A stretch of 64,000 nt of DNA, taken from the NCBI GenBank assembly GCA_008632985.1, contig QPGO01000049.1, positions 186,001 to 250,000 on the forward strand. Reading direction: 5' to 3'. The notes under the pieces are model-generated. The model made no database searches and was not told where the DNA came from. It saw only the letters and a list, made by a program, of their open reading frames with translations. The translations under genes were made by a program, and so were the position numbers. Positions 1 to 36,200 of this stretch are shown here, piece after piece. The DNA is from Psammoneis japonica. Taxonomy: Eukaryota. Positions within the stretch are counted from its first letter, which is position 1. The number at the start of each line of letters is the position of its first letter.

Positions 1-539
1 AATTGTTTGCCAACACAACCTGGCTCAACCTTGCCATTTTGCCTCTCTTTTCTTGCAAATCTCTCAATGTGAAGACATGGAAGAGTGCACCCCTCTGCTG
101 CACTGGCACAGCACCATGTGCTGCTGCCTGGCATTAGCAGCAGTTTCTCCAAGGCCCATGCCAGCTGCATGACAACCTCAACAATGCCATGCCAGTGCTC
201 CAAGATCTGCTTCCAGCAATGAGATTGATGGTTTCACAAAAACAGAGACTGCTCCACCCAAGCAAGCATTGTCACACCCCATGTTGCACAACAAGCTGGC
301 TGCAAACTCTAAAAAGATGCCAAGCAGTGCTGCCATCTTTCTGCCACTGGTTGGGCAGTGTGCAAATGCCATCTCTTGTCAAATCAGGGTTGCAAAGCCA
401 GCTAAGAAGCCATGTGACTCTCTGGGGCACCTTTGTTGTTGGTCACATTTTTGGCAGAGGGGGGGGGGGGGGGGGGGGGCACCACAGGGCTCAGGGCAAG
501 CACAGAGCCAAAATGATTAAACACATGTGAGACCACAAG

Positions 540-1784: not shown

Positions 1785-2128
1785 TGTTGGAGCAAGTTAG
1801 ATGAGGGTGTTAGAGAACCCGGAAATAGTTGAAGTCCATGGATGTTTTGGCTCCTGACGTGGCCGGTCTGATGACCATGCATTCTTTGTCATCGCACTGT
1901 CATCCCTGAAATGAAGTGTTCTCACTCTTTAGAGTGAATCATCTGGTGTGTCAACTGTTGTCATCGGTGATGGGAAGCATCTGTTAAAAAAACCAAATCC
2001 ATTTGGTGTGCAAAGTTGTGTTGAATGATCTTCCAGGCAAACCACACAAGCAGCCAGGATGTGTGCATCAAGAGTGGAGGAAGCTTCACAAGATTCCCTT
2101 TTGCCGCCATTAACATGTTGGTCCAACA
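1785..2128 (+). repeat. 5' LTR
   Basis: TGTTGGAGCAAG...GGTCCAACA; aligns to 9067-9410. Confidence 0.95.
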
Positions 2129-2143
2129 TTCACTCTAAAGAGT
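2128..2143 (+). promoter_or_regulatory. Primer-binding site complementary to the LTR (putative self-priming PBS)
   Basis: ATTCACTCTAAAGAGT is the exact reverse complement of LTR 1924-1939 (ACTCTTTAGAGTGAAT). No tRNA-type TGG PBS is present. Confidence 0.65.
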
Positions 2144-2214
2144 CACAAGCATGCAAGTGAGACAGCTTGCCATGCCAAGTCTACATTCTCTTGAAGAAAC
2201 AAGCAGCCTGCAAG

Positions 2215-5200
2215 ATGAGCAGCAGAGGAACTGGCAATCTGCACAAGAAGGGCCAAGACGGAAAGTGTGGCCAAGGCAATGGGAATGAGAACCCCAAGTC
2301 TTCCGGATCAAAGAAGAAGATGCACAGCAACAGGAGCTTTAACCCTGAAATGAAATTCCATCCATCAATGATGAACAGTGACTCTTGAAACACAACGTTG
2401 GAAGACATGAAGACCAAGATTGTGCATTGCATCCAGAAAGAGTGCAAACAAGGAAAGCACTTGGCATGATCACTAGAAGACATGAAGCACCAAGACTTTT
2501 TGGGTGAGGAACCAACCTCAAAGGTGTCCAACAAAGCAAAGGACTCACCAGAAGCAGAGCAAGAGAACAGACAGTTTGAATGCAAGCACAAGGCTGAACT
2601 CAGAGATCATTGCCACAAGACAAAACAGTTCGAGGAGAACAAGAACAAGGCATTTGCAATGATTCTTGATGACTGCTGCGTGAGACCAATGAGGCAGAGA
2701 GTGCAAGCAGATCTCACCTGCAGTGCAATCAGGGACAATCCCATTGAGCTGCTAAAGCTGATCCAAACCCTGACACACGACTCCATGATGGGTCGACACC
2801 CATTCCACACACTTGCGAAAGCACTCAAAAACCTGTTGGATTTAAACCAACAAGAACAAGAGCCGATCAACAACCACCTGTCACATTTTAAGAATCAACG
2901 TGATGCAACAAGCAAAGGATTGGGCGAAAACTGCTTGACAGTTTCATTGAAAACTCAAAGGAGCATGCCACAGCAGGAACATCAGAGAAAAAGGAAATGA
3001 AGCAGTCTGCATGTGAGACATGGGCTGCATTCCCATTCATTCCAAACAGCAATGATTGCCATTGCAAGATCCTCAAGAAGGGTCTGGTTAGAGACTGCAG
3101 CATGGGAAAGGACATGCATCCCAAGATGCTGGAGTCAGCCATGAATGCACCACTCAACCATTCAAAGGACAATGATCCGCGCAAGAGAAGCGCAAAGAAC
3201 TGCAATCACAGATGCAATGACAACAATGACAAGGACAAGAACAAGAACAAGAAGGACCAAAGTCACTTGCAAAAACAAAGCAAGTCAATTGCATGCCACT
3301 GCTGTGGGGTGGTGGACAATCATGAGTCCAACGAGTGCAAACTGAGAAACAAGATGCCATTTGATCAATGGTGGAAGAAAACTGGAAAGAAACCACAGCT
3401 GCCAGGGCAAAGTCATGCCCAATCAAGAACTGGAAAGAGCAGTTCAAGCAAAGACGACACAAGTGTCAAGTCCGTGCTCAGCATGACATCTGCTTGGTCG
3501 TGCAAGGGCCGAGCAAAAGCTTGGCATGGACTGCAACTTGGGAATGATGACCAAGGAATGAGCTTAAATCAGAACAACACAAACATTGAGCCAGAAGAGA
3601 TTGTCCTTGACAATGGTTCTGCCCTTGGCATGGCAGCAAGCCAGAGGTCAGTGCACAACGTGCGACTGGCAAGGATCAAGATTGATCTGTCCACCAACGC
3701 AGGAGTGGACACACTGGACAAAGACTGCACCATGCCAGGATGGGGTGATGTAAAACTGGGATCCAAGAATGTGATTGCCAACATCCTCAGTTTACGGGAT
3801 GCAAAACAGAAGTGTTGTGTTGCATGCGACAACAGAGCAGCAGATGAGTTCCGACTGCCAGACAGGAAAACAAACAAACAAGCCGTTAAGGCCAATGACT
3901 CAGGGCTGCACACATTTCAACCAAGCAAGGAGTCCTTTGAGAACGTCCAATGGCTGCAAGAAGAGGAGCGACATGCAAGTCTGAATGTGACAACCACGAG
4001 GAAGTTGAGGCAGAAGATGCCAAAACCCGGCAGTGCATCAGGGGCCATGATCCCCTCTGCTAAAGAAAATGCCAAGGGCCACACAAAACGCAAGATGTTG
4101 CAAGTGAAAGAGGCACTGCGATTCTGTCATGAAGCCGGCATCCCAAGCACACAGGATTGCAGACGTTCCTCATGTTCCAATCAGGTGAAGAACTTGACCA
4201 TCGCACCAGATGATGCTGATCAAATGGTGGCCACTTGGGGTCCACCAGAGGATGCGATTAAAGGAAAGACCAAGCGTGCTCATCATTCCCATGAGAGGAA
4301 CGTCGTGATTGCTTTGCCATCTGAATTTCATGAAAGGCAGAGCAATGGAATGACTCTGTGCATCAACATTGTGGAGGTTTGTGGAGTCAAGCTCCTGCAC
4401 TCCATCAACAAGACTGTTGAGCACAGAGCAAATGTGAAACTGAAGTCCAAGAAGCACGTGGACATTTGCAATGCACTGGACATGATGCCACGACAATGTG
4501 ACAAGGCACTCTTCAAGACAGATTTCATGGAATGCAATCCTGAGTTCAAGGAAATGTTGTCCGAGGTTGCAGACGGTGTGAGCATTGAACTCATTGCTGT
4601 CAATCCGAAAGACCATGTTCCCAAGGTGGAGCGCAGTGTCCAAACCATCAAGGAACAAACTTGCACCACGGTGCACCATGCACCGCACAAGGCAATGCCA
4701 AAGCTCATGTGTGAGCATGCGGCAATCAAGAATGCTGTGATGATGAACATGTGCCCACAAAAGGATGGCATTTTGGATGTCTGCAGTCCTCACACCATTG
4801 TGCAACAACAAAATCTTGACCATGCCAAACATTTTGAATTTACATTTGGAGAGTTTGTGCTCTCACACATTGAGAACCAACCCACCAATGCCATGGAGAT
4901 GTGTGGCGTTGACAGCATCCACCTGTGCCCATGGTTTGATGCTGACAAAGGGGGGCACTGCACCATGAATTTGCACACGGGCAAGCTTTTAAATCCCTGC
5001 AAGTGCACTGCAGTTCCACTGACCAGCACCCACATTCGGGTGGTCGAAAAGATGGCCTCTCGTCAAGGCATTGAAGAATTCAAGTTCACTGGTTGATGTG
5101 GTGACAATCTTTGTGACACCAATTGGACTGCAGGAGAGGAAGACAGCAACAGCGACAGTGACAGTGACAGCGACAATGACAGCAACAGCGACAGCAACAG

Positions 5201-7290
5201 CAACAACAACAGCAACAGCAACAGCAAAGATGACTCAGACAATGAACAAGAACAAGCTGATGAAACTTTAGCAGGAAATGAACACAGTCCCAATCAACAT
5301 CAAGAAGATGAAGAGAAAGAAGAATCCAATGAAATGGGAGACATGAAGAACAACCAGAACCCACTGAGATCAGAGGTTGAACAACAAGATTGGGACAAAG
5401 CCACATCACTGCATCAAAGGACAGCATGCCTGACAAAACAACACACAAGAAGAAAATTCTCTTTCCAGGAGTGGCAGCCACAGAACAAGAGGAACGCAAG
5501 CAAAGGAAACTCAAATGCTGCCATCATCTAAGAGCAAATGTCAATCCCAATCCTGAGGATGACATGGAATGCCACTGCAAGGTCAGACTTGTCACAGCAT
5601 TCTTTATGTGCAAGCACAATGACAGAGCAAGAGTGGGATGAGAGATCTCACTTGGACAACAGCACCTGTTGCACAAAGGCCTAAAGTCATTTGGCCAGAG
5701 AGGAAATGATGCCTCAGAAAAGGAAACAAAACAACTGCATGATCAAGTGTGTTTCCAACCAGTGTCAGTGAAAGACATGACTCCGCAAGAGAGAGCCAAG
5801 GCAATGGCAGCCTTGATGTTCCTGATGGAGAAGCGTGATGGATGCACAAAAGGGCGAATGGCATGCAACGGCAAACCATCATGAGAAATGCTAGACAAGG
5901 ACAAGTCAGCCAGCCCAACAGCATCACCAGAAGGAATTGTGATGACACCGCAGTGACAGATGTGGATGAAGGATGTGACATTGTGAGCACGGACATTCCA
6001 AATGCATTTGTGCAGACAGAAATTCTGGAGCCACAGAAAGGCAAAGACTGGATTGGGATGAAGATCACAGGTTTGCCAGTGGACATGCCAGCAAATGTTG
6101 ATCCCAACCTCTGTGGACTGCATGTGGTCCTAGAGAGAGGAAGGAGAGTCCTCTGCGCACAAGTGGCAAGAGCCATCTGCATCATGGTGGTCGCGGCTCC
6201 ACCATGGCACAAGAAGTTCCAAAAGGACTTGGAGAGGGTTGGGTTTGAGTTCAACCCATGTGACCCATGCATTGCCAACCACAATGGAAAGCAGCACACA
6301 GTGCAACCCCACATGGATGATTTGTCATCAAGTCACAGGAATCCCAAAGCAAATGACAAGTTTCTCAAGTGGTCAAACAGAGAGTGCGGGAGCCATGGCA
6401 AGGTCGTGGCAACAAGAGGAAAGAAACATGACTGCCTTGGCATGATCCTGAATTTTACCGACAAAGGAAAGCCAAGGGTGGACATGAGAAAGCAAACAGG
6501 ATCAATGGTTGACAGTTTCCTGGAAAAGATCAAGAGCACAGATTTCACAATGACACCTGCAGGGGAGAACCTGTTTGAGACAGGCGGCACAAGACTGACC
6601 AAAGAGAAAGCACAAACATTCCATGTGTGGGTTGCCAAAGGATCATTTGCATCCAAGAGAGGCCGCATGGACATGCACCCCACAATGTTGGCGCCATGTG
6701 CGCAAACAAGGGAACCCACAGATGAGGACTGTACAAAGTTAGTCCAATGTCTCAAGCATTTGAATCAAACAAGGAACGAAGTGGCAACACTGAGTGCCAA
6801 GGATCTCCGAGTGACAAAGTGGCACGTGGATGCATCATTTGCGGTGCATCCAGGTTTCAAGAGCCACACCGGAGCAGCAACAACAATGGGCAATGGGGCA
6901 ATGCAAGCCATGTCAAGAAGACAGAAGCTCAACACACGAAGCAGCACAGAAGCTGAACTGGTTGGAGTCAATGATGCAGTGACTGTGATCCCATGGACAT
7001 TTGTGGAACACCAAGGACATCCTGTCAACAAGAATGTGCCACACCAGGACAACAAGAGCGTGATCTTGTTGGAGACTGATGGTCATCAAAGTGCCGGCAA
7101 ATGGTCAAGGGGGGCACTCAACACAAGACATTTCTTTGTGTGCAACCAAGTCAAGAAGGGCAATCTGACCATTGAATGCTGTCCTGCAGATGCAATGATT
7201 TTGGGGATTTTATGACCAAGCCATTGCAAGGCGAGAAGTTTTGCAAATTTAAACAAGCCACAATGGGGTGCTGGAGATCCAACAGCAACA
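2215..7290 (+). pseudogene. Copia gag-pol polyprotein, frameshifted and with stops
   Basis: Zn-knuckle-like CHCCG..H..C, protease VLDNGS, integrase HVPKVERSVQTIKE, RT DIPNAFVQ/NPCDPC/HMDD, RNase H KWHVDASFAVH, SSTEAELVGV, QDNKS, DFMTKPLQG. Confidence 0.92.
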
Positions 7291-7679
7291 GGAGTGGGCT
7301 CCTGTTTTGTGATGTCAGACGAGAACTTTGACGTGCATGGGTGAAAGATCCCTGCAATCCAGAGAATGATGAACGTGCAATCTTCTCCCGGAGCAACACA
7401 GAGCAAGCAACACCAAGCACACAATTGAACACTGTCCCACAGATGCAATGATTTGGGATTTTATGACCAAGCCATTGCAAGGTGAGAAGTTTCACAAATT
7501 TAAACGAGCTGCAATGGGGTGCCAGAGACCCAACAGCAACAGGAGTGGGCTCCTGTTTTGTGACATCAGATGAGAACTCTGATGCACATGGGTGAAAGAT
7601 CCCTGTGACCCGGAGAATGACAAATGTGCAATCTTCTCCCAGAGCAACACAGTGTGAGCAACACCAAGCACACAATTGA
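7171..7679 (+). repeat. Tandem duplication (~253-bp unit) of the pol 3' end
   Basis: ATTGAATGCTGTCCTGCAGATG at 7171 and ATTGAACACTGTCCCACAGATG at 7424. The copies align over the whole unit. Confidence 0.92.
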
Positions 7680-7685
7680 GCAACC

Positions 7686-9054
7686 ATGGACGGCGATGAA
7701 GCTGGAGGTTTTGATGGAAATGTGGCAGCGGCCGAGGCTCACGCATTTGATGAACGCATGTGCTGTGAGCATGTTGCCTTCAACAAACACAACAAGGTGG
7801 CAGCAGCTGGCCCAAGAACTGTTTGCTTGAGATCATGAAGATGTTCAAGATGCCTGTCCGACACAAGGATTTGTTTGTTTGGAGAGGAGAGCTGGTTGTG
7901 AGCAAAAAACCCACAGATTGGCAGAATGGAACAAGACTGCAGCGTTTGAGCAGCATGCCAAGCAAGTGCAAAGAAGAGTGCAGAACCTGCAAGGTTTTTG
8001 GCACAGAAGGTTACATCCTGCCTTTGACCCAAACAGGAGAGGAGAACTTAACAGAGGAAGACTGCCATCACTGAGTCCTGATCTAGCAAGAGATGCACTG
8101 GATTGCACACAGCTTGCGGTGGACCTGGATTGCAGGCACAGGCTCAACTCTGATCACATGAGAGCGGTGTGGCAAGAGAGATGCTGTGCAAGGCTCGAAG
8201 CAATGGTGACCATGTTCAAAATGCACCAGACATGGACACCGCTGATGTGGGAACATGTGTCCACTGCAACCCCAATGATCTCTGTCCATGACAAAATGGA
8301 GACCATCACAGACAAGATGAGGTGGCCAAACATTGTGGCGCACACCCGTGAATCCCATTGGAAATTCCTGGCAAAGAGGTCAGAAACTCACAACAAGACA
8401 AGGCCGTCCTTTGCTCAGGGGCAACAGAACCCTGCAAAATTGGCCTTTGACAGGCTGGACATTGACCACATGGCAAAGGTGCCGTGGCTACAAGGTGTGC
8501 CGATGTGTGGCATGGATCGACTTGGGCAATGTGGCGGACTGATGTGTCCAGGCCACAACCACACTGCCGAGCATCCAGATTTTAGTGAGCTTGTCAGAGA
8601 CAAGAACGGAGTCATGTTTGATGCATTGAAACTGTCAATGTTCTTCAGAAGGACAATCGAATTTGTGTCCAATGTGCAGAAGCATCCCTGGGTTGTGCAC
8701 ATGGTGGATTTTCTCACATTGACTCCAAACACCATGCACCAGTGGATCTGAGATCAAATCAAACATTCAAATGACCGGAATGACACGCTGAGTGATGCAC
8801 AGCAAGAATTGATCAGACAAGATTTTACAATGACATTCGTCAACCATGTGAAAGGTGTTGCCAATGAATTTGATGACATGCGGTGCTGCTCAAGCAACAA
8901 ACAAGACACGTGGCATTTTGCCGAAGGGGTGAACATTGAGAGAGAACCTCATGATGTTCTCTACAATGTGTGTGCAAGGTGGAACATTTTCCCTCGAGGA
9001 GATGTTCCAACCTGTGTTGCAGCCCAAGAAGCATTGGACAAACAATCAGAGTGA
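7686..9054 (+). pseudogene. Extra sense ORF of unknown function between pol and the 3' LTR
   Basis: ORFs 7879-8751 and 8809-9054 are in the same frame, separated by a single TGA. An ATG lies at 7686 in another frame. Confidence 0.6.
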
Positions 9055-9066
9055 GTGGCAGGAGTG

Positions 9067-9410
9067 TGTCGGAGCAAGTTAGACGAGGGCATCAGAGAAC
9101 CTGGAAACAGTTGAAGTCTGTGGACATTTGGCTCCTGATGTGGCCTGTCTGATGATGATGTGTTCTTTGTCATTGCACTGTCATCCCCAAAATGAAGTGT
9201 TCTCACTCTTTAGAGTGAATCATCTGGTGTGTCAACCATTGTCATCGGCACTGGGTGGCATCTGTTGGGGCCAAATGCATTTGGTGCACGAAGCTGTTGA
9301 ACAATCTTCGAGGCAAACCACAGCCACACAAGCAGCCAGGACGTGCACATTGAGAGCAGAGGAAGCTTTGTGAGATTCCCTTTTGCCGACATTAACACGT
9401 TGGTTCAACA
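9067..9410 (+). repeat. 3' LTR
   Basis: TGTCGGAGCAAG...GGTTCAACA followed by TSD CCAAC. Confidence 0.95.
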
Positions 9411-10964
9411 CCAACAAGCTTGTCTTTGAAAAGCAAGGGTGAGCCAGATGCTTTGTGAGTTTGCTCTGGATGCAGTCAGGCTGAATCACCAAGTTTTACA
9501 GAGTCAAAAAAGTGAGCTCATTTAACAATTTCTTGCTGCATGCTGACTTTGGCAATGAGGACCTCAAGCAGATGGGTCCCATCATTGAGCCAGGCAAATC
9601 ATTCTGCTGCTGCTGTCCCATCACAGAGCAGAGCTCCATGGACTCATTGGTGATGTGTCCCTTGACAACATTGCTGCCATCTCAAAGGAAAGCTCTCAAA
9701 ACAAAAACCCAAACAATGAGTCTTTGCATGTGTTCATTGAAAAAAACACTGAAGACAGCAGGGTCATCAATTGCAAAAAAGAGTGGGAAGAGCATGGGCT
9801 GGGCACACAGAAAGATTTCTGTCCCCCCCCCCCCCAAAAAAAAAAGCTGCTCCAAGTCAACCAAACTCAAAATCTTGTCTTGCTCATGTGCTGACAAACA
9901 AAGCAAGCAGAGCTGTTTTCACATCTTGTTCAATGCACCACTTGGCTCTTCATTGAGCAAATTCCCCCACCTGAAACTCCACCATGCAGCCAGCCAGTTT
10001 GAACAAAAAGGATGCACCCACTTGACACAGAATTCAAAAAAAATCATTGCATTCCAGAGACAACAAAGAGGTGCAAAGGCATTGTGACAAATCAACTGGA
10101 GTGCAAAAAATGACGAACATGTTTTCCAGCCCCATGATGATGGCAGCATGGTGGAAATGCCCATCAAGGACATGCAAGAATGGACAAAAAGTCAAAAGAA
10201 GGATCCTGAAGAGTTGTCATGTGAAGCTGCAGCCACCAATTGGTTGGCACCTTCACAAAAGGAGTGGGGGTGGTGGGTGACAACTTTCCTCAAACAGGTG
10301 TTGATGCTCAAGCCACTGCTGTCATCCCAACACCTGACCAGTCACACATTGGGTCTGTCCAACTTCACCTGTTGAACATGTCAAACCCCAAAAAGGCAGA
10401 ACCGCATGTCCTCCACTCCAAGTGCTTGCCTCCCTCATGTCAAAATCCAACTTTTTGAGAAATGGGTTGAAGGTGTCAAGGCTGGCTGGGCTGGTCTGCA
10501 AAGTGAGTTGCATCCTGAAGGTGAGGAATTAGGTGATCCCAAAGTTGTCCCCAAAGGACTCGTCACCGTTTCAATTCTGATGACATCGAGTGGCACCGAC
10601 CTTGTAGGCTCCTCTAATTTTGAATCTTCTCTACTTAGTGAAATGATTGGCTTTGGTTCCTTTGCTGTTAGAAATGCACTTTGAACACCAAAAATCACAT
10701 TGGCTGATTCATCAAACAATACAAGTACATCATGTTTATTATCCCTCTAATTCTCTCATGCCATACCCAGATCTCATCGATGTCGACAAGATGTGCACAG
10801 ATTCCTTTGTTCCCACATCATCTCCGTCACAAACATCGGTTGTAGCCCTACTCGTACAAATCAAAGTCTCGCCAGCACTGATAATCGTGATAAAATAATT
10901 GCAACATCACCACTACTAGTAACTCTTTGGTGGTCTTGGGGTTCTCACTGCCGATCGCTCTAGA

Positions 10965-24230: not shown

Positions 24231-27200
24231 TTAATCGGGTGCTTCCAAAACGCGGGGTTTCCGGCTGCGCTTTTGCTGTTTCTTTTTACGCCAACGAAGC
24301 TGCTGCTTTCGGCGTCTACGACGAATGACGCGAAGACACTTTTTCCAGCGCCTACGATCACGGGTCCTGTATTTCCTTGTGCAATCACCAGAGCTGGTAG
24401 TCTTGCTCTTGCTACCAGAGCCAGACTTGCTCTTGCTACCAGAGCCAGACTTGCTCTTGCTTGAGCCACCAGTCTTGCTCTTGCTTGATCCCCCGCAGCC
24501 GGAGCTGCTGCTACTACTTTCTGGAGAGCATCTTCCTTGAGTGTCGGTGTCGGTGTCAGTGGGTGGCAAGGGAGTATTAGAGGCTCCACTGACACCGGCC
24601 TTTCGTGACGTGAAGGTCGAAACACCATCCATACCAAAAATATCAACCATGGCTGTCACACGGAGCTTTGTTCCTTCAGGGAGCACCGCGTTGGTAGCAC
24701 ACTTTTCAAACTCCACCATTATGTCATTGGATTCGAGAATTGTCATGGGGGCAGGACTAACCTCGCAGCCTTGTGTGCTCAATGGAACCCAACGATTGCG
24801 TAGTCCGCCAGTCCTCCTGTACTCAAATCGGAGACGCAAGTCTTGGATTTGCACGTTGTATCCTCCCGACTCGTTGGAGATGTAAAACCGTCCGCTAAAC
24901 GTTTCCGGGCCACCGTCATTTGCTGGTAGCAAGTGAACCCACTTTCCCCAACACACCGAGACAGACCGTTCTGTTGTGGCCGTTACAGTGATTTCAATCC
25001 TTCCAGTGTCACACATGTCATCGGGAGCGCAAACGGAATATTCGACGTGGTCTAGACCCGCAAAGCCCGGAGCCGGATCATAGGTGAATCCTCCACTGGG
25101 CGTCACAAAAATAGCTCCACCGCATTCGCTGTGCACGTCATCCGCGTGAGTCGTTAAATCATCAAGAGGAGTGTCATTGTCAGAACAACCAGCGGTGGTA
25201 CCATTGAAGCAACCGAATGTGCCCTCTTCGCATTCATGCACGTGCTTGAGGCCCTCTGTTGCAACAATTGACAATATTGTGTCTTGTTCTGTGACAAACG
25301 CCAAGTCCTGCGCTACGGGCGAATCATAAACTTCGGTCACGACAATGCTGACGAGTCCTGTGCCACATTCTTGGCTGTTGTTCTTGCAGATTTCGTACTC
25401 CAAGAAATCATCGCCATTGAATTCTGGATCCGGGGTATACGTTAAGGTACCATCCCTGTTGTTGACGACTTCTCCATTGGCGGGCTCAAAAACCACGGTG
25501 GCTGTGCTAGGATCGAAGTCGCCATCATGAATGGTGGTATCGATTGTAATTGGGGTTTCCTCAGGAGTGATGTACAGTTCATCCCAGTCTTGTGCTGGAT
25601 CGTCCACTGGGGATACGGCAATGCTGACAAGTGCTGTATCGCATTCATCATTTGAGTCGCAAATTCGATACTCGAATTCTTCAATTCCAACAAAGTTATG
25701 ATCAGGAGTATAAGTGAAGGTTCCATCCCCATTGTTGACAACGTCTCCATTCGATGGATCAGAAAGAAGGGTTGCGGTACTATGGACTAAGTCACCATCG
25801 ATGCCAAGATCATTGGCGGCTACATCGATTGTCACCGGAGTATCTTCCAGAGTGGTAGTTAAATCGTCGAGAGCCACCGGAGGGTCATTCACGGCCTTGA
25901 TTGTAATGGTGACGGTAGCTTGGTCGCATGAGTTTTGTGTGTCACAAGCCTCATACGTGTAGGAATCGTTGCCGGTGAAGTCGGGGTCCGGAGTGTAGGT
26001 AAAGCCGCCATGAGTGTCTTGTTGGAGGGCGCCATGGTCCGGTGGGTCCAACAGATTGACGGATAGTGTGTCGTCGTTTCCATCGGCGTCTGCATCGTTG
26101 ACAAGGATGCCGGGAGATGTTATCGTGAGCGGCGTGTCTTCTTCAGTCTCATACACGTCGTCCTCTGCCACGGGTGGGTCGTTGACGCCAACGACTGTTA
26201 TGGAGACAGTGGCCGAGTCGCAGGCGTCGCTGGTGTCGCACGCTTCGTATGTGTAGGAATCCGATCCGTGGTAATGCTCGTTTGGCATGTAAGAGAAGCT
26301 TCCTTCTGGGTTCTGTTCGAGAGTACCGTGATTCGGATGAGATAGGACGTTCACAGTCAAGGGATCGTCCTCGGCGTCGCTGTCATTATCGAGGACTCCA
26401 GGAGCAGCGACGTCGAGTTTGGTGTCCTCGGGAGTATTGTATGAATCGTCTTCAGCAATCGGTGGATCATTGACAGGGCCAACCGTGACGGTGACTGTTG
26501 CTGCAACCGTAGAGCATTCACCTTGGGTGTCGCAAATGTAGTATTCGAAGTGGTCTTGGCCGTGAAAATGGGGATTGGGTGTGTACGTGAAAGTTCCATC
26601 CCCATTATTGACGACGGTTCCGTGGCTTGGCTCAGTAACAACCTCTGCCGTGTCGGGATCGAGATCCCCATCTACGTCAGTGTCGTTGGCGGCCGCATTG
26701 ATTGTGACCGGAGTGTCTTCCTGGGTGCTGATGGTATCGTTCACAGCCACCGGAGGGTCATTCACGGCCTTGATTGTAATGGTGACGGTAGCTTGGTCGC
26801 ATGAGTTTTGTGTGTCACAAGCCTCATACGTGTAGGAATCGTCGCCGGTGAAGTCGGGGTCCGGAGTGTAGGTAAAGCCGCCATGAGGGTCTTGTTGGAG
26901 GGCGCCATGGTCCGGTGGGTCCAACAGATTGACGGATAGTGTGTCGTCGTTTCCATCGGCGTCTGCATCGTTGACAAGGATGCCGGGAGATGTTATCGTG
27001 AGCGGCGTGTCTTCTTCAGTCTCATACACGTCGTCCTCTGCCACGGGTGGGTCATTGACGCCAACGACTGTTATGGAGACAGTGGCCGAGTCGCAGGCGT
27101 CGCTGGTGTCGCACGCTTCGTATGTGTAGGAATCCGATCCGTGGTAATGCTCGTTTGGCATGTAAGAGAAGCTTCCATCTGGGTTCTGTTCGAGAGTACC

Positions 27201-30200
27201 GTGATTCGGATGAGATAGGACGTTCACAGTCAAGGGATCGTCCTCGGCGTCGCTGTCATTATCGAGGACTCCAGGAGCAGCGACGTCGAGTTTGGTGTCC
27301 TCGGGAGTATTGTATGAATCGTCTTCAGCAATCGGTGGATCATTGACAGGGCCAACCGTGACGGTGACTGTTGCTGCAACCGTAGAGCATTCACCTTGGG
27401 TGTCGCAAATGTAGTATTCGAAGTGGTCTTGGCCGTGAAAATGGGGATTGGGTGTGTACGTGAAAGTTCCATCCCCATTATTGACGACGGTTCCGTGGCT
27501 TGGCTCAGTAACAACCTCTGCCGTGTCGGGATCGAGATCCCCATCTACGTCAGTGTCGTTGGCGGCCGCATTGATTGTGACCGGAGTGTCTTCCTGGGTG
27601 CTGATGGTATCGTTCACAGCCACCGGAGGGTCATTCACGGCCTTGATTGTAATGGTGACGGTAGCTGGTCGCATGAGTTTTGTGTGTCACAAGCCTCATA
27701 CGTGTAGGAATCGTCGCCGGTGAAGTCGGGGTCCGGAGTGTAGGTAAAGCCGCCATGAGGGTCTTGTTGGAGGGCGCCATGGTCCGGTGGGTCCAACAGA
27801 TTGACGGATAGTGTGTCGTCGTTTCCATCGGCGTCTGCATCGTTGACAAGGATGCCGGGAGATGTTATCGTGAGCGGCGTGTCTTCTTCAGTCTCATACA
27901 CGTCGTCCTCTGCCACGGGTGGGTCATTGACGCCAACGACTGTTATGGAGACAGTGGCCGAGTCGCAGGCGTCGCTGGTGTCGCACGCTTCGTATGTGTA
28001 GGAATCCGATCCGTGGTAATGCTCGTTTGGCATGTAAGAGAAGCTTCCATCTGGGTTCTGTTCGAGAGTACCGTGATTCGGATGAGATAGGACGTTCACA
28101 GTCAAGGGATCGTCCTCGGCGTCGCTGTCATTATCGAGGACTCCAGGAGCAGCGACGTCGAGTTTGGTGTCCTCGGGAGTATTGTATGAATCGTCTTCAG
28201 CAATCGGTGGATCATTGACAGGGCCAACCGTGACGGTGACTGTTGCTGCAACCGTAGAGCATTCACCTTGGGTGTCGCAAATGTAGTATTCGAAGTGGTC
28301 TTGGCCGTGAAAATGGGGATTGGGTGTGTACGTGAAAGTTCCATCCCCATTATTGACGACGGTTCCGTGGCTTGGCTCAGTAACAACCTCTGCCGTGTCG
28401 GGATCGAGATCCCCATCTACGTCAGTGTCGTTGGCGGCCGCATTGATTGTGACCGGAGTGTCTTCCTGGGTGCTGATGGTATCGTTCACAGCCACCGGAG
28501 GGTCATTCACGGCCTTGATTGTAATGGTGACGGTAGCTTGGTCGCATGAGTTTTGTGTGTCACAAGCCTCATACGTGTAGGAATCGTCGCCGGTGAAGTC
28601 GGGGTCCGGAGTGTAGGTAAAGCCGCCATGAGGGTCTTGTTGGAGGGCGCCATGGTCCGGTGGGTCCAACAGATTGACGGATAGTGTGTCGTCGTTTCCA
28701 TCGGCGTCTGCATCGTTGACAAGGATGCCGGGAGATGTTATCGTGAGCGGCGTGTCTTCTTCAGTCTCATACACGTCGTCCTCTGCCACGGGTGGGTCAT
28801 TGACGCCAACGACTGTTATGGAGACAGTGGCCGAGTCGCAGGCGTCGCTGGTGTCGCACGCTTCGTATGTGTAGGAATCCGATCCGTGGTAATGCTCGTT
28901 TGGCATGTAAGAGAAGCTTCCATCTGGGTTCTGTTCGAGAGTACCGTGATTCGGATGAGATAGGACGTTCACAGTCAAGGGATCGTCCTCGGCGTCGCTG
29001 TCATTATCGAGGACTCCAGGAGCAGCGACGTCGAGTTTGGTGTCCTCGGGAGTATTGTATGAATCGTCTTCAGCAATCGGTGGATCATTGACAGGGCCAA
29101 CCGTGACGGTGACTGTTGCTGCAACCGTAGAGCATTCACCTTGGGTGTCGCAAATGTAGTATTCGAAGTGGTCTTGGCCGTGAAAATGGGGATTGGGTGT
29201 GTACGTGAAAGTTCCATCCCCATTATTGACGACGGTTCCGTGGCTTGGCTCAGTAACAACCTCTGCCGTGTCGGGATCGAGATCCCCATCTACGTCAGTG
29301 TCGTTGGCGGCCGCATTGATTGTGACCGGAGTGTCTTCCTGGGTGCTGATGGTATCGTTCACAGCCACCGGAGGGTCATTCACGGCCTTGATTGTAATGG
29401 TGACGGTAGCTTGGTCGCATGAGTTTTGTGTGTCACAAGCCTCATACGTGTAGGAATCGTCGCCGGTGAAGTCGGGGTCCGGAGTGTAGGTAAAGCCGCC
29501 ATGAGGGTCTTGTTGGAGGGCGCCATGGTCCGGTGGGTCCAACAGATTGACGGATAGTGTGTCGTCGTTTCCATCGGCGTCTGCATCGTTGACAAGGATG
29601 CCGGGAGATGTTATCGTGAGCGGCGTGTCTTCTTCAGTCTCATACACGTCGTCCTCTGCCACGGGTGGGTCATTGACGCCAACGACTGTTATGGAGACAG
29701 TGGCCGAGTCGCAGGCGTCGCTGGTGTCGCACGCTTCGTATGTGTAGGAATCCGATCCGTGGTAATGCTCGTTTGGCATGTAAGAGAAGCTTCCATCTGG
29801 GTTCTGTTCGAGAGTACCGTGATTCGGATGAGATAGGACGTTCACAGTCAAGGGATCGTCCTCGGCGTCGCTGTCATTATCGAGGACTCCAGGAGCAGCG
29901 ACGTCGAGTTTGGTGTCCTCGGGAGTATTGTATGAATCGTCTTCAGCAATCGGTGGATCATTGACAGGGCCAACCGTGACGGTGACTGTTGCTGCAACCG
30001 TAGAGCATTCACCTTGGGTGTCGCAAATGTAGTATTCGAAGTGGTCTTGGCCGTGAAAATGGGGATTGGGTGTGTACGTGAAAGTTCCATCCCCATTATT
30101 GACGACGGTTCCGTGGCTTGGCTCAGTAACAACCTCTGCGTGTCGGGATCGAGATCCCCATCTACGTCAGTGTCGTTGGCGGCCGCATTGATTGTGACCG

Positions 30201-33200
30201 GAGTGTCTTCCTGGGTGCTGATGGTATCGTTCACAGCCACCGGAGGGTCATTCACGGCCTTGATTGTAATGGTGACGGTAGCTTGGTCGCATGAGTTTTG
30301 TGTGTCACAAGCCTCATACGTGTAGGAATCGTCGCCGGTGAAGTCGGGGTCCGGAGTGTAGGTAAAGCCGCCATGAGGGTCTTGTTGGAGGGCGCCATGG
30401 TCCGGTGGGTCCAACAGATTGACGGATAGTGTGTCGTCGTTTCCATCGGCGTCTGCATCGTTGACAAGGATGCCGGGAGATGTTATCGTGAGCGGCGTGT
30501 CTTCTTCAGTCTCATACACGTCGTCCTCTGCCACGGGTGGGTCATTGACGCCAACGACTGTTATGGAGACAGTGGCCGAGTCGCAGGCGTCGCTGGTGTC
30601 GCACGCTTCGTATGTGTAGGAATCCGATCCGTGGTAATGCTCGTTTGGCATGTAAGAGAAGCTTCCATCTGGGTTCTGTTCGAGAGTACCGTGATTCGGA
30701 TGAGATAGGACGTTCACAGTCAAGGGATCGTCCTCGGCGTCGCTGTCATTATCGAGGACTCCAGGAGCAGCGACGTCGAGTTTGGTGTCCTCGGGAGTAT
30801 TGTATGAATCGTCTTCAGCAATCGGTGGATCATTGACAGGGCCAACCGTGACGGTGACTGTTGCTGCAACCGTAGAGCATTCACCTTGGGTGTCGCAAAT
30901 GTAGTATTCGAAGTGGTCTTGGCCGTGAAAATGGGGATTGGGTGTGTACGTGAAAGTTCCATCCCCATTATTGACGACGGTTCCGTGGCTTGGCTCAGTA
31001 ACAACCTCTGCTGTGTCGGGATCGAGATCCCCATCTACGTCAGTGTCGTTGGCGGCCGCATTGATTGTGACCGGAGTGTCTTCCTGGGTGCTGATGGTAT
31101 CGTTTACAGCCACCGGAGGGTCATTCACGGCCTTGATTGTAATGGTGACGGTAGCTGGTCGCATGAGTTTTGTGTGTCACAAGCCTCATACGTGTAGGAA
31201 TCGTCGCCGGTGAAGTCGGGGTCCGGAGTGTAGGTAAAGCCGCCATGAGGGTCTTGTTGGAGGGCGCCATGGTCCGGTGGGTCCAACAGATTGACGGATA
31301 GTGTGTCGTCGTTTCCATCGGCGTCTGCATCGTTGACAAGGATGCCGGGAGATGTTATCGTGAGCGGCGTGTCTTCTTCAGTCTCATACACGTCGTCCTC
31401 TGCCACGGGTGGGTCATTGACGCCAACGACTGTTATGGAGACAGTGGCCGAGTCGCAGGCGTCGCTGGTGTCGCACGCTTCGTATGTGTAGGAATCCGAT
31501 CCGTGGTAATGCTCGTTTGGCATGTAAGAGAAGCTTCCATCTGGGTTCTGTTCGAGAGTACCGTGATTCGGATGAGATAGGACGTTCACAGTCAAGGGAT
31601 CGTCCTCGGCGTCGCTGTCATTATCGAGGACTCCAGGAGCAGCGACGTCGAGTTTGGTGTCCTCGGGAGTATTGTATGAATCGTCTTCAGCAATCGGTGG
31701 ATCATTGACAGGGCCAACCGTGACGGTGACTGTTGCTGCAACCGTAGAGCATTCACCTTGGGTGTCGCAAATGTAGTATTCGAAGTGGTCTTGGCCGTGA
31801 AAATGGGGATTGGGTGTGTACGTGAAAGTTCCATCCCCATTATTGACGACGGTTCCGTGGCTTGGCTCAGTAACAACCTCTGCTGTGTCGGGATCGAGAT
31901 CCCCATCTACGTCAGTGTCGTTGGCGGCCGCATTGATTGTGACCGGAGTGTCTTCCTGGGTGCTGATGGTATCGTTCTCAGCCACCGGAGGGTCATTCAC
32001 GGCCTTGATTGTAATGGTGACGGTAGCTTGGTCGCATGAGTTTTGTGTGTCACAAGCCTCATACGTGTAGGAATCGTCGCCGGTGAAGTCGGGGTCCGGA
32101 GTGTAGGTAAAGCCGCCATGAGGGTCTTGTTGGAGGGCGCCATGGTCCGGTGGGTCCAACAGATTGACGGATAGTGTGTCGTCGTTTCCATCGGCGTCTG
32201 CATCGTTGACAAGGATGCCGGGAGATGTTATCGTGAGCGGCGTGTCTTCTTCAGTCTCATACACGTCGTCCTCTGCCACGGGTGGGTCATTGACGCCAAC
32301 GACTGTTATGGAGACAGTGGCCGAGTCGCAGGCGTCGCTGGTGTCGCACGCTTCGTATGTGTAGGAATCCGATCCGTGGTAATGCTCGTTTGGCATGTAA
32401 GAGAAGCTTCCATCTGGGTTCTGTTCGAGAGTACCGTGATTCGGATGAGATAGGACGTTCACAGTCAAGGGATCGTCCTCGGCGTCGCTGTCATTATCGA
32501 GGACTCCAGGAGCAGCGACGTCGAGTTTGGTGTCCTCGGGAGTATTGTATGAATCGTCTTCAGCAATCGGTGGATCATTGACAGGGCCAACCGTGACGGT
32601 GACTGTTGCTGCAACCGTAGAGCATTCACCTTGGGTGTCGCAAATGTAGTATTCGAAGTGGTCTTGGCCGTGAAAATGGGGATTGGGTGTGTACGTGAAA
32701 GTTCCATCCCCATTATTGACGACGGTTCCGTGGCTTGGCTCAGTAACAACCTCTGCTGTGTCGGGATCGAGATCCCCATCTACGTCAGTGTCGTTGGCGG
32801 CCGCATTGATTGTGACCGGAGTGTCTTCCTGGGTGCTGATGGTATCGTTCACAGCCACCGGAGGGTCATTCACGGCCTTGATTGTAATGGTGACGGTAGC
32901 TTGGTCGCATGAGTTTTGTGTGTCACAAGCCTCATACGTGTAGGAATCGTCGCCGGTGAAGTCGGGGTCCGGAGTGTAGGTAAAGCCGCCATGAGGGTCT
33001 TGTTGGAGGGCGCCATGGTCCGGTGGGTCCAACAGATTGACGGATAGTGTGTCGTCGTTTCCATCGGCGTCTGCATCGTTGACAAGGATGCCGGGAGATG
33101 TTATCGTGAGCGGCGTGTCTTCTTCAGTCTCATACACGTCGTCCTCTGCCACGGGTGGGTCATTGACGCCAACGACTGTTATGGAGACAGTGGCCGAGTC

Positions 33201-36200
33201 GCAGGCGTCGCTGGTGTCGCACGCTTCGTATGTGTAGGAATCCGATCCGTGGTAATGCTCGTTTGGCATGTAAGAGAAGCTTCCATCTGGGTTCTGTTCG
33301 AGAGTACCGTGATTCGGATGAGATAGGACGTTCACAGTCAAGGGATCGTCCTCGGCGTCGCTGTCATTATCGAGGACTCCAGGAGCAGCGACGTCGAGTT
33401 TGGTGTCCTCGGGAGTATTGTATGAATCGTCTTCAGCAATCGGTGGATCATTGACAGGGCCAACCGTGACGGTGACTGTTGCTGCAACCGTAGAGCATTC
33501 ACCTTGGGTGTCGCAAATGTAGTATTCGAAGTGGTCTTGGCCGTGAAAATGGGGATTGGGTGTGTACGTGAAAGTTCCATCCCCATTATTGACGACGGTT
33601 CCGTGGCTTGGCTCAGTAACAACCTCTGCTGTGTCGGGATCGAGATCCCCATCTACGTCAGTGTCGTTGGCGGCCGCATTGATTGTGACCGGAGTGTCTT
33701 CCTGGGTGCTGATGGTATCGTTTACAGCCACCGGAGGGTCATTCACGGCCTTGATTGTAATGGTGACGGTAGCTTGGTCGCATGAGTTTTGTGTGTCACA
33801 AGCCTCATACGTGTAGGAATCGTCGCCGGTGAAGTCGGGGTCCGGAGTGTAGGTAAAGCCGCCATGAGGGTCTTGTTGGAGGGCGCCATGGTCCGGTGGG
33901 TCCAACAGATTGACGGATAGTGTGTCGTCGTTTCCATCGGCGTCTGCATCGTTGACAAGGATGCCGGGAGATGTTATCGTGAGCGGCGTGTCTTCTTCAG
34001 TCTCATACACGTCGTCCTCTGCCACGGGTGGGTCATTGACGCCAACGACTGTTATGGAGACAGTGGCCGAGTCGCAGGCGTCGCTGGTGTCGCACGCTTC
34101 GTATGTGTAGGAATCCGATCCGTGGTAATGCTCGTTTGGCATGTAAGAGAAGCTTCCATCTGGGTTCTGTTCGAGAGTACCGTGATTCGGATGAGATAGG
34201 ACGTTCACAGTCAAGGGATCGTCCTCGGCGTCGCTGTCATTATCGAGGACTCCAGGAGCAGCGACGTCGAGTTTGGTGTCCTCGGGAGTATTGTATGAAT
34301 CGTCTTCAGCAATCGGTGGATCATTGACAGGGCCAACCGTGACGGTGACTGTTGCTGCAACCGTAGAGCATTCACCTTGGGTGTCGCAAATGTAGTATTC
34401 GAAGTGGTCTTGGCCGTGAAAATGGGGATTGGGTGTGTACGTGAAAGTTCCATCCCCATTATTGACGACGGTTCCGTGGCTTGGCTCAGTAACAACCTCT
34501 GCTGTGTCGGGATCGAGATCCCCATCTACGTCAGTGTCGTTGGCGGCCGCATTGATTGTGACCGGAGTGTCTTCCTGGGTGCTGATGGTATCGTTCACAG
34601 CCACCGGAGGGTCATTCACGGCCTTGATTGTAATGGTGACGGTAGCTTGGTCGCATGAGTTTTGTGTGTCACAAGCCTCATACGTGTAGGAATCGTCGCC
34701 GGTGAAGTCGGGGTCCGGAGTGTAGGTAAAGCCGCCATGAGGGTCTTGTTGGAGGGCGCCATGGTCCGGTGGGTCCAACAGATTGACGGATAGTGTGTCG
34801 TCGTTTCCATCGGCGTCTGCATCGTTGACAAGGATGCCGGGAGATGTTATCGTGAGCGGCGTGTCTTCTTCAGTCTCATACACGTCGTCCTCTGCCACGG
34901 GTGGGTCATTGACGCCAACGACTGTTATGGAGACAGTGGCCGAGTCGCAGGCGTCGCTGGTGTCGCACGCTTCGTATGTGTAGGAATCCGATCCGTGGTA
35001 ATGCTCGTTTGGCATGTAAGAGAAGCTTCCATCTGGGTTCTGTTCGAGAGTACCGTGATTCGGATGAGATAGGACGTTCACAGTCAAGGGATCGTCCTCG
35101 GCGTCGCTGTCATTATCGAGGACTCCAGGAGCAGCGACGTCGAGTTTGGTGTCCTCGGGAGTATTGTATGAATCGTCTTCAGCAATCGGTGGATCATTGA
35201 CAGGGCCAACCGTGACGGTGACTGTTGCTGCAACCGTAGAGCATTCACCTTGGGTGTCGCAAATGTAGTATTCGAAGTGGTCTTGGCCGTGAAAATGGGG
35301 ATTGGGTGTGTACGTGAAAGTTCCATCCCCATTATTGACGACGGTTCCGTGGCTTGGCTCAGTAACAACCTCTGCCGTGTCGGGATCGAGATCCCCATCT
35401 ACGTCAGTGTCGTTGGCGGCCGCATTGATTGTGACCGGAGTGTCTTCCTGGGTGCTGATGGTATCGTTTACAGCCACCGGAGGGTCATTCACGGCCTTGA
35501 TTGTAATGGTGACGGTAGCCTGGTCGCATGAGTTTTGTCTGTCACAAGCCTCATACGTGTAGGAATCGTCGCCGGTGAAATCGGGGTCCGGAGTGTAGGT
35601 AAAGCCGCCATGAGGGTCTTGTTGGAGGGCGCCATGGTCCGGTGGGTCCAACAGATTGACGGATAGTGTGTCGTCGTTTCCATCGGCGTCTGCATCGTTG
35701 ACAAGGATGCCGGGAGATGTTATCGTGAGCGGCGTGTCTTCTTCAGTCTCATACACGTCGTCCTCTGCCACGGGTGGGTCATTGACGCCAACGACTGTTA
35801 TGGAGACAGTGGCCGAGTCGCAGGCGTCGCTGGTGTCGCACGCTTCGTATGTGTAGGAATCCGATCCGTGGTAATGCTCGTTTGGTATGTAAGAGAAGCT
35901 TCCATCTGGGTTCTGTTCGAGAGTACCGTGACTCGGATGAGATAGGACGTTCACAGTCAAGGGATCGTCCTCGACGTCGCTGTCATTGTCGAGGACTCCA
36001 GGAGCAGCGACGTCGAGTTTGGTGTCCTCGGGAGTATTGTATGAATCGTCTTCAGCAATCGGTGTGTCATTCGCTTGAGCGACCGTTATTGTGACAGTCG
36101 CTTCGTGGCATAGACCGCCTTGGTCGCATGCATCGTACTTGTAGAAATCCTCGCCGAAAAAGTTGGGATCTGGAGTGTAAATGAAGCCACCATCGGGGCT

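Follow-up and report, generated by a model that had tools for sequence, protein, structure and literature searches.

Complementarity between the LTR and the primer-binding site in a diatom-type Copia lineage, and the self-priming it suggests

A described case of an LTR retrotransposon that begins reverse transcription without a tRNA is Tf1 of Schizosaccharomyces pombe, in which the first 11 nt of the RNA pair with the primer-binding site (PBS) and RNase H cuts after nucleotide 11 (PMC7175516). A second, predicted case is found among plant Ty1/copia elements, where the TAR lineage has been put forward as self-priming, with earlier proposals to the same effect for Houba and Osr-1 (Neumann et al. 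2019, PMC6317226). The criterion used in that work was a complement to the LTR of at least 10 bp that starts 0–5 bp after the LTR (PMC6317226). The fungal GalEa elements, which are also Copia, carry a “conserved hairpin site” in place of the PBS, and in the available text of that study the authors never found a complement in the LTR (PMC5445492). The element described here had attracted attention in a preliminary description because the bases that follow its 5' LTR are complementary to a segment of the LTR itself, an arrangement that the description compared with Tf1/sushi elements, noting that Copia elements normally use a tRNA. The Tf1/sushi precedent stands, but self-priming is not confined to that group, given the prediction for the plant Copia lineage TAR (PMC6317226).

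An old Copia element and its placement

The window, by which is meant the whole 64-kb stretch of DNA that was analysed, holds one LTR retrotransposon, which lies on the + strand at 1785–9410; a second copy of its lineage is absent elsewhere in these 64 kb. The two LTRs (1785–2128 and 9067–9410) are direct repeats of 344 nt each, which start with TGTTGG (5' LTR) or TGTCGG (3' LTR), end with CCAACA or TCAACA, and match one another in three gapless blocks (D2–D4 of the direct-repeat comparison) that are 83–89% alike. The same 5 bp, CCAAC, are present at both flanks of the element, at 1780–1784 and 9411–9415, and this target-site duplication fixes the ends of the LTRs, so that base 2128 is the last base of the 5' LTR; some related contigs depart after that base.

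Between the LTRs, all on the + strand, are the remains of gag and pol. The 5' remnant of gag (2215–2903) is interrupted by stops, one of them within 2215–2469, and it probably starts at the ATG at 2215, where the first residues resemble the N-termini in an alignment of gag proteins from relatives (A2, described below). The open remnant P0001 (2904–5096, 730 aa) contains the C-terminus of gag with a CCHC motif, a protease-like DNGS and an integrase, as judged from its translation, from relatives found with phmmer and from a structural model of one of them, P0132. The remnant of RT–RNase H spans 5369–7270 and includes P0002 (5839–7215, 458 aa), with frameshifts upstream of the latter. P0001 and P0002 are the biggest stop-to-stop frames of the element and lie in different frames. 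A tandem duplication of 251 nt, whose copies are 87% alike (D1), lies over the end of pol at 7201–7682, and the C-terminus of pol is matched twice there. A polypurine-type tract (9048–9066) that ends in ..CAGGAGTG directly precedes the 3' LTR, and the same junction of ..CAGGAGTG with TGTTG is found in nine related loci. With LTRs that are about 15% diverged and ORFs that are broken, this copy is old and dead, and anything said about its priming therefore applies to its lineage.

Pol is separated from the 3' LTR by some 1.5 kb (7550–9066). An open frame of 306 aa is present there (7831–8751), for which a Pfam match was absent even at an E of 10, and the stretch may represent an additional ORF or mere filler that has decayed. 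Elsewhere in the window, twelve head-to-tail copies of an 873-nt unit, 99–100% alike, occupy 25777–35820, a stretch with a higher G+C (about 0.545) and a strong positive GC skew.

The TG..CA termini of the LTRs and the 5-bp duplication are those expected of Ty1/copia elements (Pseudoviridae). Pfam searches with the window's own ORFs gave zero matches, even at an E of 10, probably because the ORFs are decayed, whereas their relatives could be classified. P0002 has 1248 relatives at about 50–52% identity; among the 120 matches listed, nearly all carry PF07727 (RVT_2), and one is a protein named from the diatom Cylindrotheca fusiformis. RVT_2 was confirmed in the relatives P0003, P0144 and P0198, and the closest protein-atlas clusters are eukaryotic, with Bacillariophyta as the most frequent label among the very few members that carry a label; it is from such relatives alone that the term “diatom-type” is taken. 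P0001 has 2137 relatives by phmmer, of which P0132 aligns across residues 6–728, and the model of P0132 (mean pLDDT 74.5) has retroviral integrases as its best matches in the PDB (E about 5e-8, probability 1.00). The integrase of P0131, P0132, P0144 and P0184 was recognised by fold alone, next to a weak sequence hit to SH3_retrovirus (E 0.044); Pfam and PDB sequence searches failed to detect it in these relatives, and PDB sequence searches gave nothing useful for either RT or integrase.

The integrase predicted by this model in P0001 (2904–5096) lies upstream of the RT–RNase H remnant, which is the Copia order of domains and marks the element as Copia-type. Membership in the Tf1/sushi group of Ty3/gypsy elements is ruled out by the Copia RT together with this order, which is not the RT–RNase H–integrase of that group. 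A scan of viral contigs with the RT alignment found no relatives. The best reading is that the element belongs to a deep, diatom-type Copia clade and would be Tf1-like in mechanism, not in membership.

The LTR complement in the window and in related loci

The last base of the 5' LTR and the 15 nt that follow it (2128–2143, + strand, ATTCACTCTAAAGAGT), a putative PBS, are the perfect reverse complement of 1924–1939 in the 5' LTR, a segment that is repeated unchanged at 9205–9220 in the 3' LTR. When all 64 kb were searched with the 16-mer, these were the only three perfect sites (2128–2143 on the + strand, the other two on the − strand), and one extra site had three mismatches, compared to a chance expectation of about 0.55 sites at up to three mismatches. 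The complement and its conservation in the 3' LTR are thus as the preliminary description had reported them, and two of its further statements were also borne out: the pairing is placed at the U5 boundary, since base 2128 is the final LTR base as set by the CCAAC duplication, and a tRNA-type PBS is not apparent, in that TGG is absent from the 30 nt after the 5' LTR, which speaks against priming by the 3' end of a tRNA. A tRNA gene search of the 64-kb window found none.

In 2000 dinucleotide shuffles of the LTR, compared with 2127–2160, the longest complement reached 13 nt once and was otherwise at most 11 nt, as against the 16 nt observed, and among 34-nt windows taken through the interior of the element, complements of more than 11 nt were seen only in windows that overlap the site at 2128–2143. 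The 16-bp helix is present in both the minimum-energy and the centroid structures when the RNA from 1924 to 2215 or from 1900 to 2215 is folded, while the fold energies of the whole regions are no more stable than those of shuffled sequences (z −1.68 and −0.68).

Although its LTRs have decayed, this old element keeps the 16-nt motif unchanged at each of the three sites. The decay, as seen in contigs aligned at a likeness of at least 80%, consists mostly of transitions (A>G 71, C>T 62, G>A 68 and T>C 55, with transversions totalling 64). One DNA run that contains the element contributed 114 contigs aligned at this likeness, and their summed depth, which is not equivalent to copy number, peaks in the bin 1908–1958 at 2747, versus 582 and 719 in the adjoining bins and 66 in unique flank. 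Some of the related contigs match only from 1917 on and others depart after 2128, a pattern to be expected if U3 varies, the start of R is well kept and the LTR ends at 2128, and there is a weak hint here that the segment at 1924–1939 is kept better than the rest of the LTR.

Other protein searches that took the decayed gag-PR-IN remnant as query gave no matches. With P0001 as the query, phmmer led to intact gag-PR(-IN) proteins, 13 of which were aligned (A2), and a scan of metagenome contigs with this alignment returned 79 loci with 24–47% identity to its first row. A blastn comparison of 1785–5100 of the window with the 79 loci gave just two matches, of 39–40 nt. For 39 loci the contig extends 250 nt or more upstream of the estimated gag start, and in 21 of these the longest perfect inverted repeat of that region was 13–17 nt, as compared to one of 780 shuffles and one of 39 coding windows of equal size. 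In 19 of these 21 loci the 3' arm of the repeat starts directly behind a ..CAAC(A) end or on its last A, and the 5' arm lies 59–225 nt upstream. A relaxed search, which allowed one or two mismatches and shorter spacing, added L002, L010, L016, L030, L059, L054, L074, L075 and L077, and a whole-contig scan added L006, L026, L033, L055 and L067; in the first four of the latter the site stands behind pol, an effect of permuted or tandem assembly of the contig. By the relaxed criteria, 35 of the 79 loci conform, with a complement of 13–17 nt located 26–225 nt upstream (29 perfect, six with one or two mismatches). A strict signature was also defined as a perfect repeat of at least 12 nt with 15–400 nt between its arms, a 3' arm that starts with CA and a 5' arm that starts with YCA, and this was found on the + (coding) strand of 25 of the 79 contigs, on the − strand of 0 of 79 and in 0 of 395 shuffled contigs.

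What is conserved is the pairing and where it is placed. The sequences themselves vary, with 28 distinct 5' arms among 31 cases, the window included. In 26 of the 31 the 3' arm comes straight after CAACA or takes in its final A, and none of the 31 3' arms begins with TGG. In L061, a direct repeat of the LTR (1–190 = 5322–5511) ends right before the 3' arm at 191–203. The 5' arm lies 66–271 nt inside the LTR in the nine loci with the conserved tract–LTR junction, to which the heuristic search for LTR starts was confined, since it is noisy. Between L006 and L030, which belong to one family, there is one change in each arm and the pairing is kept. When the RNA from the first to the second arm was folded, the minimum-energy structure contained the complete arm helix in 30 of 36 cases.

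An RT tree was built from 23 rows, namely the window, four proteins and the 18 loci whose RT match covers 330 aa or more, loci without such an RT being excluded. Conforming loci are present in both of its well-supported halves, with L006, L026, L033 and L055 counted, and the branching order is unresolved in the group that joins the window to L031, L029, L003, L001 and the Cylindrotheca protein. In these relatives a change in the LTR segment goes with a change in the PBS, and the arrangement is a real, lineage-wide signature. Conservation of the complementarity, which the preliminary description had named as a test of its idea, has accordingly been found in 35 of the 79 loci at the same two anchor points and with different sequences. 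The hairpin that it noted within the LTR segment fared less well: the near-palindrome is present at 1922–1937, but the hairpins in the arms of relatives have stems of just 2–5 bp and are not conserved, and the hairpin was therefore rejected as a functional feature.

Nine loci fail to conform among the 39 with enough upstream sequence. In L004, a PBS-like sequence resembling that of the window (322–339) follows CAACA and is likewise followed by CACA, but the 321 nt upstream contain no complement to it; the copy may have been rearranged, or the locus may simply break the rule. L025 and L079 show no signature at all, L060 and L063 have only a pair with one mismatch that lacks the flanking motifs, and L071 is a relative of the L061 family with two mismatches. 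L049, L052 and L057 belong to the L006 family, whose leader is about 1.1 kb long, so that the site falls past the end of the contig or outside the span that was searched. Of the remaining 35 loci that lack the signature, most have too little upstream sequence, and they count neither for nor against it.

The L006 family (L006, L010, L016, L030 and L059, together with the three loci just mentioned) has only 26–28 nt between the arms, which means that R and U5 are tiny, and its long leader precedes gag. A local hairpin in this leader has a stem that differs between L006 and L057, with pairing kept. An extra helix beside the arms was not found in the 31 cases (mean z −0.12; one of 31 below −2), and an accessory structure like that of Tf1 is hence not evident.

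A predicted priming mechanism and its rivals

At the 5' edge of the upstream arm, 29 of the 31 cases have YCA, mostly TCA, a motif that occupies 10.9% of positions in the same LTR stretches. Its A stands directly before the first paired base in 15 cases, is the first paired base in 13 and is the second in one. A promoter study in Phaeodactylum proposes TCAH(+1)W as an initiator-like consensus for diatoms (PMC4686930), and in oomycetes the initiator is YCAYTYY, where transcription begins on the A or close to it (PMC3599244). In the window, 1922–1926 reads TCACT, which fits the diatom consensus, pairing runs from 1924, and the 5' arm begins 139 nt inside the LTR; the TCA at 1922–1924 coincides with the start that the preliminary description had predicted near nucleotide 140 of the LTR. 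The occurrence of YCA at the edge of the arm, given its fit to the diatom initiator, suggests that the 5' arm is probably made of the first bases of the transcript, with a putative start at 1924 or 1925 in the window; a primer of this origin is the defining trait of Tf1 self-priming. In 16 of 31 cases the LTR's terminal A is itself paired, and in 13 of 31 the A of TCA is, where 25% would be expected by chance, and these extra paired A's may reflect the position of the primer cut and the starting base of the RNA.

Four things can be read directly from the DNA: the complement, its place at an LTR end that has been verified, the way it covaries among relatives, and the motif at its 5' edge that resembles an initiator. 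From these we infer a start site, a cut and the priming itself. Transcription would begin at the initiator-like TCA inside the LTR (1922–1924), and the first 13–17 nt of the RNA, which in the window would be the first 16 nt of R (1924–1939), would pair with the site that abuts U5 (2128–2143), either by folding back or within an RNA dimer. A cut on the 3' side of this putative self-primer would then leave a 3'-OH at the U5 boundary, from which minus-strand synthesis would begin. As the plus strand would later copy the primer, each family would be expected to keep a private pair of primer and PBS whose members change together. Taken as a whole, Tf1-style self-priming by the front end of the element's own RNA in this diatom-type Copia clade is given a probability of about 80%, and the earlier proposal that the lineage primes without a tRNA is supported to that extent by the conserved complement, for the lineage if not for the dead copy in the window. 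A broader claim is that the whole deep clade has abandoned tRNA priming, with co-evolving private pairs, a primer of 13–17 nt that is set by the initiator, and an origin independent of both Tf1/sushi and TAR; this is put forward tentatively, at somewhat less than even odds.

Pairing between the LTR and the PBS could also belong to an RNA structure, such as a panhandle with a role in packaging, dimerisation or translation control, with another RNA as the real primer, and the presence of the helix in predicted folds would be in keeping with this. However, the 3' arm sits at the CAAC(A) end of the LTR in 26 of 31 cases, as well as in L061 with its mapped repeat, and this position is the sole possible seat of a minus-strand primer. 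A second conserved site after the 3' arm is absent, and a host primer common to all is at odds with arms that vary from family to family. A purely structural role for the pairing is for these reasons considered improbable.

Just as improbable, but closer to the favoured self-priming mechanism, is the use of the same LTR-derived primer in trans, where a short 5' fragment or the partner RNA in a dimer would take the place of the template's own folded-back end. The sequences are equally compatible with priming in cis and in trans, and the 26–28 nt between the arms in one family would make a tight loop for folding back. Nothing specific argues against priming in trans, which is a variant of self-priming and not a different primer.

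Internal fragments of host tRNAs prime copia, Ty5 and Osser, and half-tRNA priming is known among Copia lineages (PMC6317226), so that the PBS might bind such a fragment and the copy in the LTR might be incidental. With such a primer the PBS would be expected to show only one constant sequence or a few, and a copy in the LTR would be unnecessary, whereas the 31 cases have 28 distinct arms, each matched in its own LTR. A shared tRNA fragment is accordingly a very unlikely primer for these families; for the window element taken singly, a host RNA of the same sequence is conceivable. Lastly, a chance match aided by the near-palindromic motif, which is partly self-complementary and for which one of 2000 shuffles reached 13 nt, can be dismissed as next to impossible, as a 16-nt match at the exact LTR boundary that recurs in 35 related loci, compared to 0 of 395 shuffled contigs, is refuted as chance by the LTR shuffles, the upstream-region controls and the contig scan alike.

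Significance and comparison with known systems

Full-text searches of the literature, with subscription journals outside their coverage, found no report of self-priming for diatom or stramenopile elements. In light of TAR, self-priming is not categorically new for Copia, and it is for diatom-type Copia that no report was found. The main text, so far as available, of the study that described the CoDi Copia elements of diatoms has no occurrence of “tRNA” or “priming” and one of “PBS” (Maumus et al. 2009, PMC2806351). The annotation filter used for Cyclotella cryptica retains only LTR candidates with a tRNA-type PBS (PMC7466962), and if the self-priming reading is true, filters of this kind could drop or mis-score the clade in diatom genomes. 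The link between initiator and primer would, moreover, allow the boundary of U3 and R to be predicted from sequence only. The clade would also be freed from the host's supply of tRNA and, as a speculation, it would escape a host defence aimed at the tRNA-type PBS, an idea that has work on tRNA fragments behind it.

The CoDi elements are likewise diatom-associated, and their TG..CA LTRs of 150–850 nt and 5-bp duplications are like those of the window element (Maumus et al. 2009, PMC2806351). The hemivirus-type elements that use half-tRNAs (copia, Ty5, Osser and Bianca) are also Copia with a PBS that lacks an initial TGG, but theirs is complementary to a fragment of a host tRNA and is constant within a lineage, whereas the PBS in the lineage of the window varies by family and matches its own LTR. 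GalEa is likewise a Copia element without a tRNA-type PBS, in which the sequence is palindromic with the final A of the LTR, much as the last LTR base is paired in the window (PMC5445492). In contrast to GalEa, the LTR complement is the main feature here and palindromy is not conserved in the relatives, and the presence of that complement rules out a GalEa-type site.

The proposed mechanism is that of Tf1 and Tf2 of S. pombe and of the wider Tf1/sushi group, in which the start of the element's own transcript pairs with a PBS next to the 5' LTR and no tRNA takes part. In the window the PBS likewise adjoins the 5' LTR, and it matches a segment of that LTR which is probably the start of the transcript. 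As in Tf1, the primer would be freed by a cut at its 3' side (PMC7175516). The Tf1/sushi elements are Ty3/gypsy chromoviruses, whereas the window element is a Copia with an RVT_2 RT and an integrase placed before it, and its lineage, known here through sequence comparison, has arms of 13–17 nt as compared to the 11 nt of Tf1, with no accessory helix detected. TAR, too, is Copia and predicted to be self-priming, and the window element agrees with the definition applied there, its complement starting at the very end of the LTR (PMC6317226); however, the hosts of TAR are land plants and the relatives of the window element are labelled Bacillariophyta. If the prediction is true, this diatom-type clade would bear on the question of whether self-priming is old or easily evolved in LTR retroelements (PMC3601003), and it would be the third, phylogenetically remote, self-priming group of LTR elements after Tf1/sushi and the plant TAR lineage.
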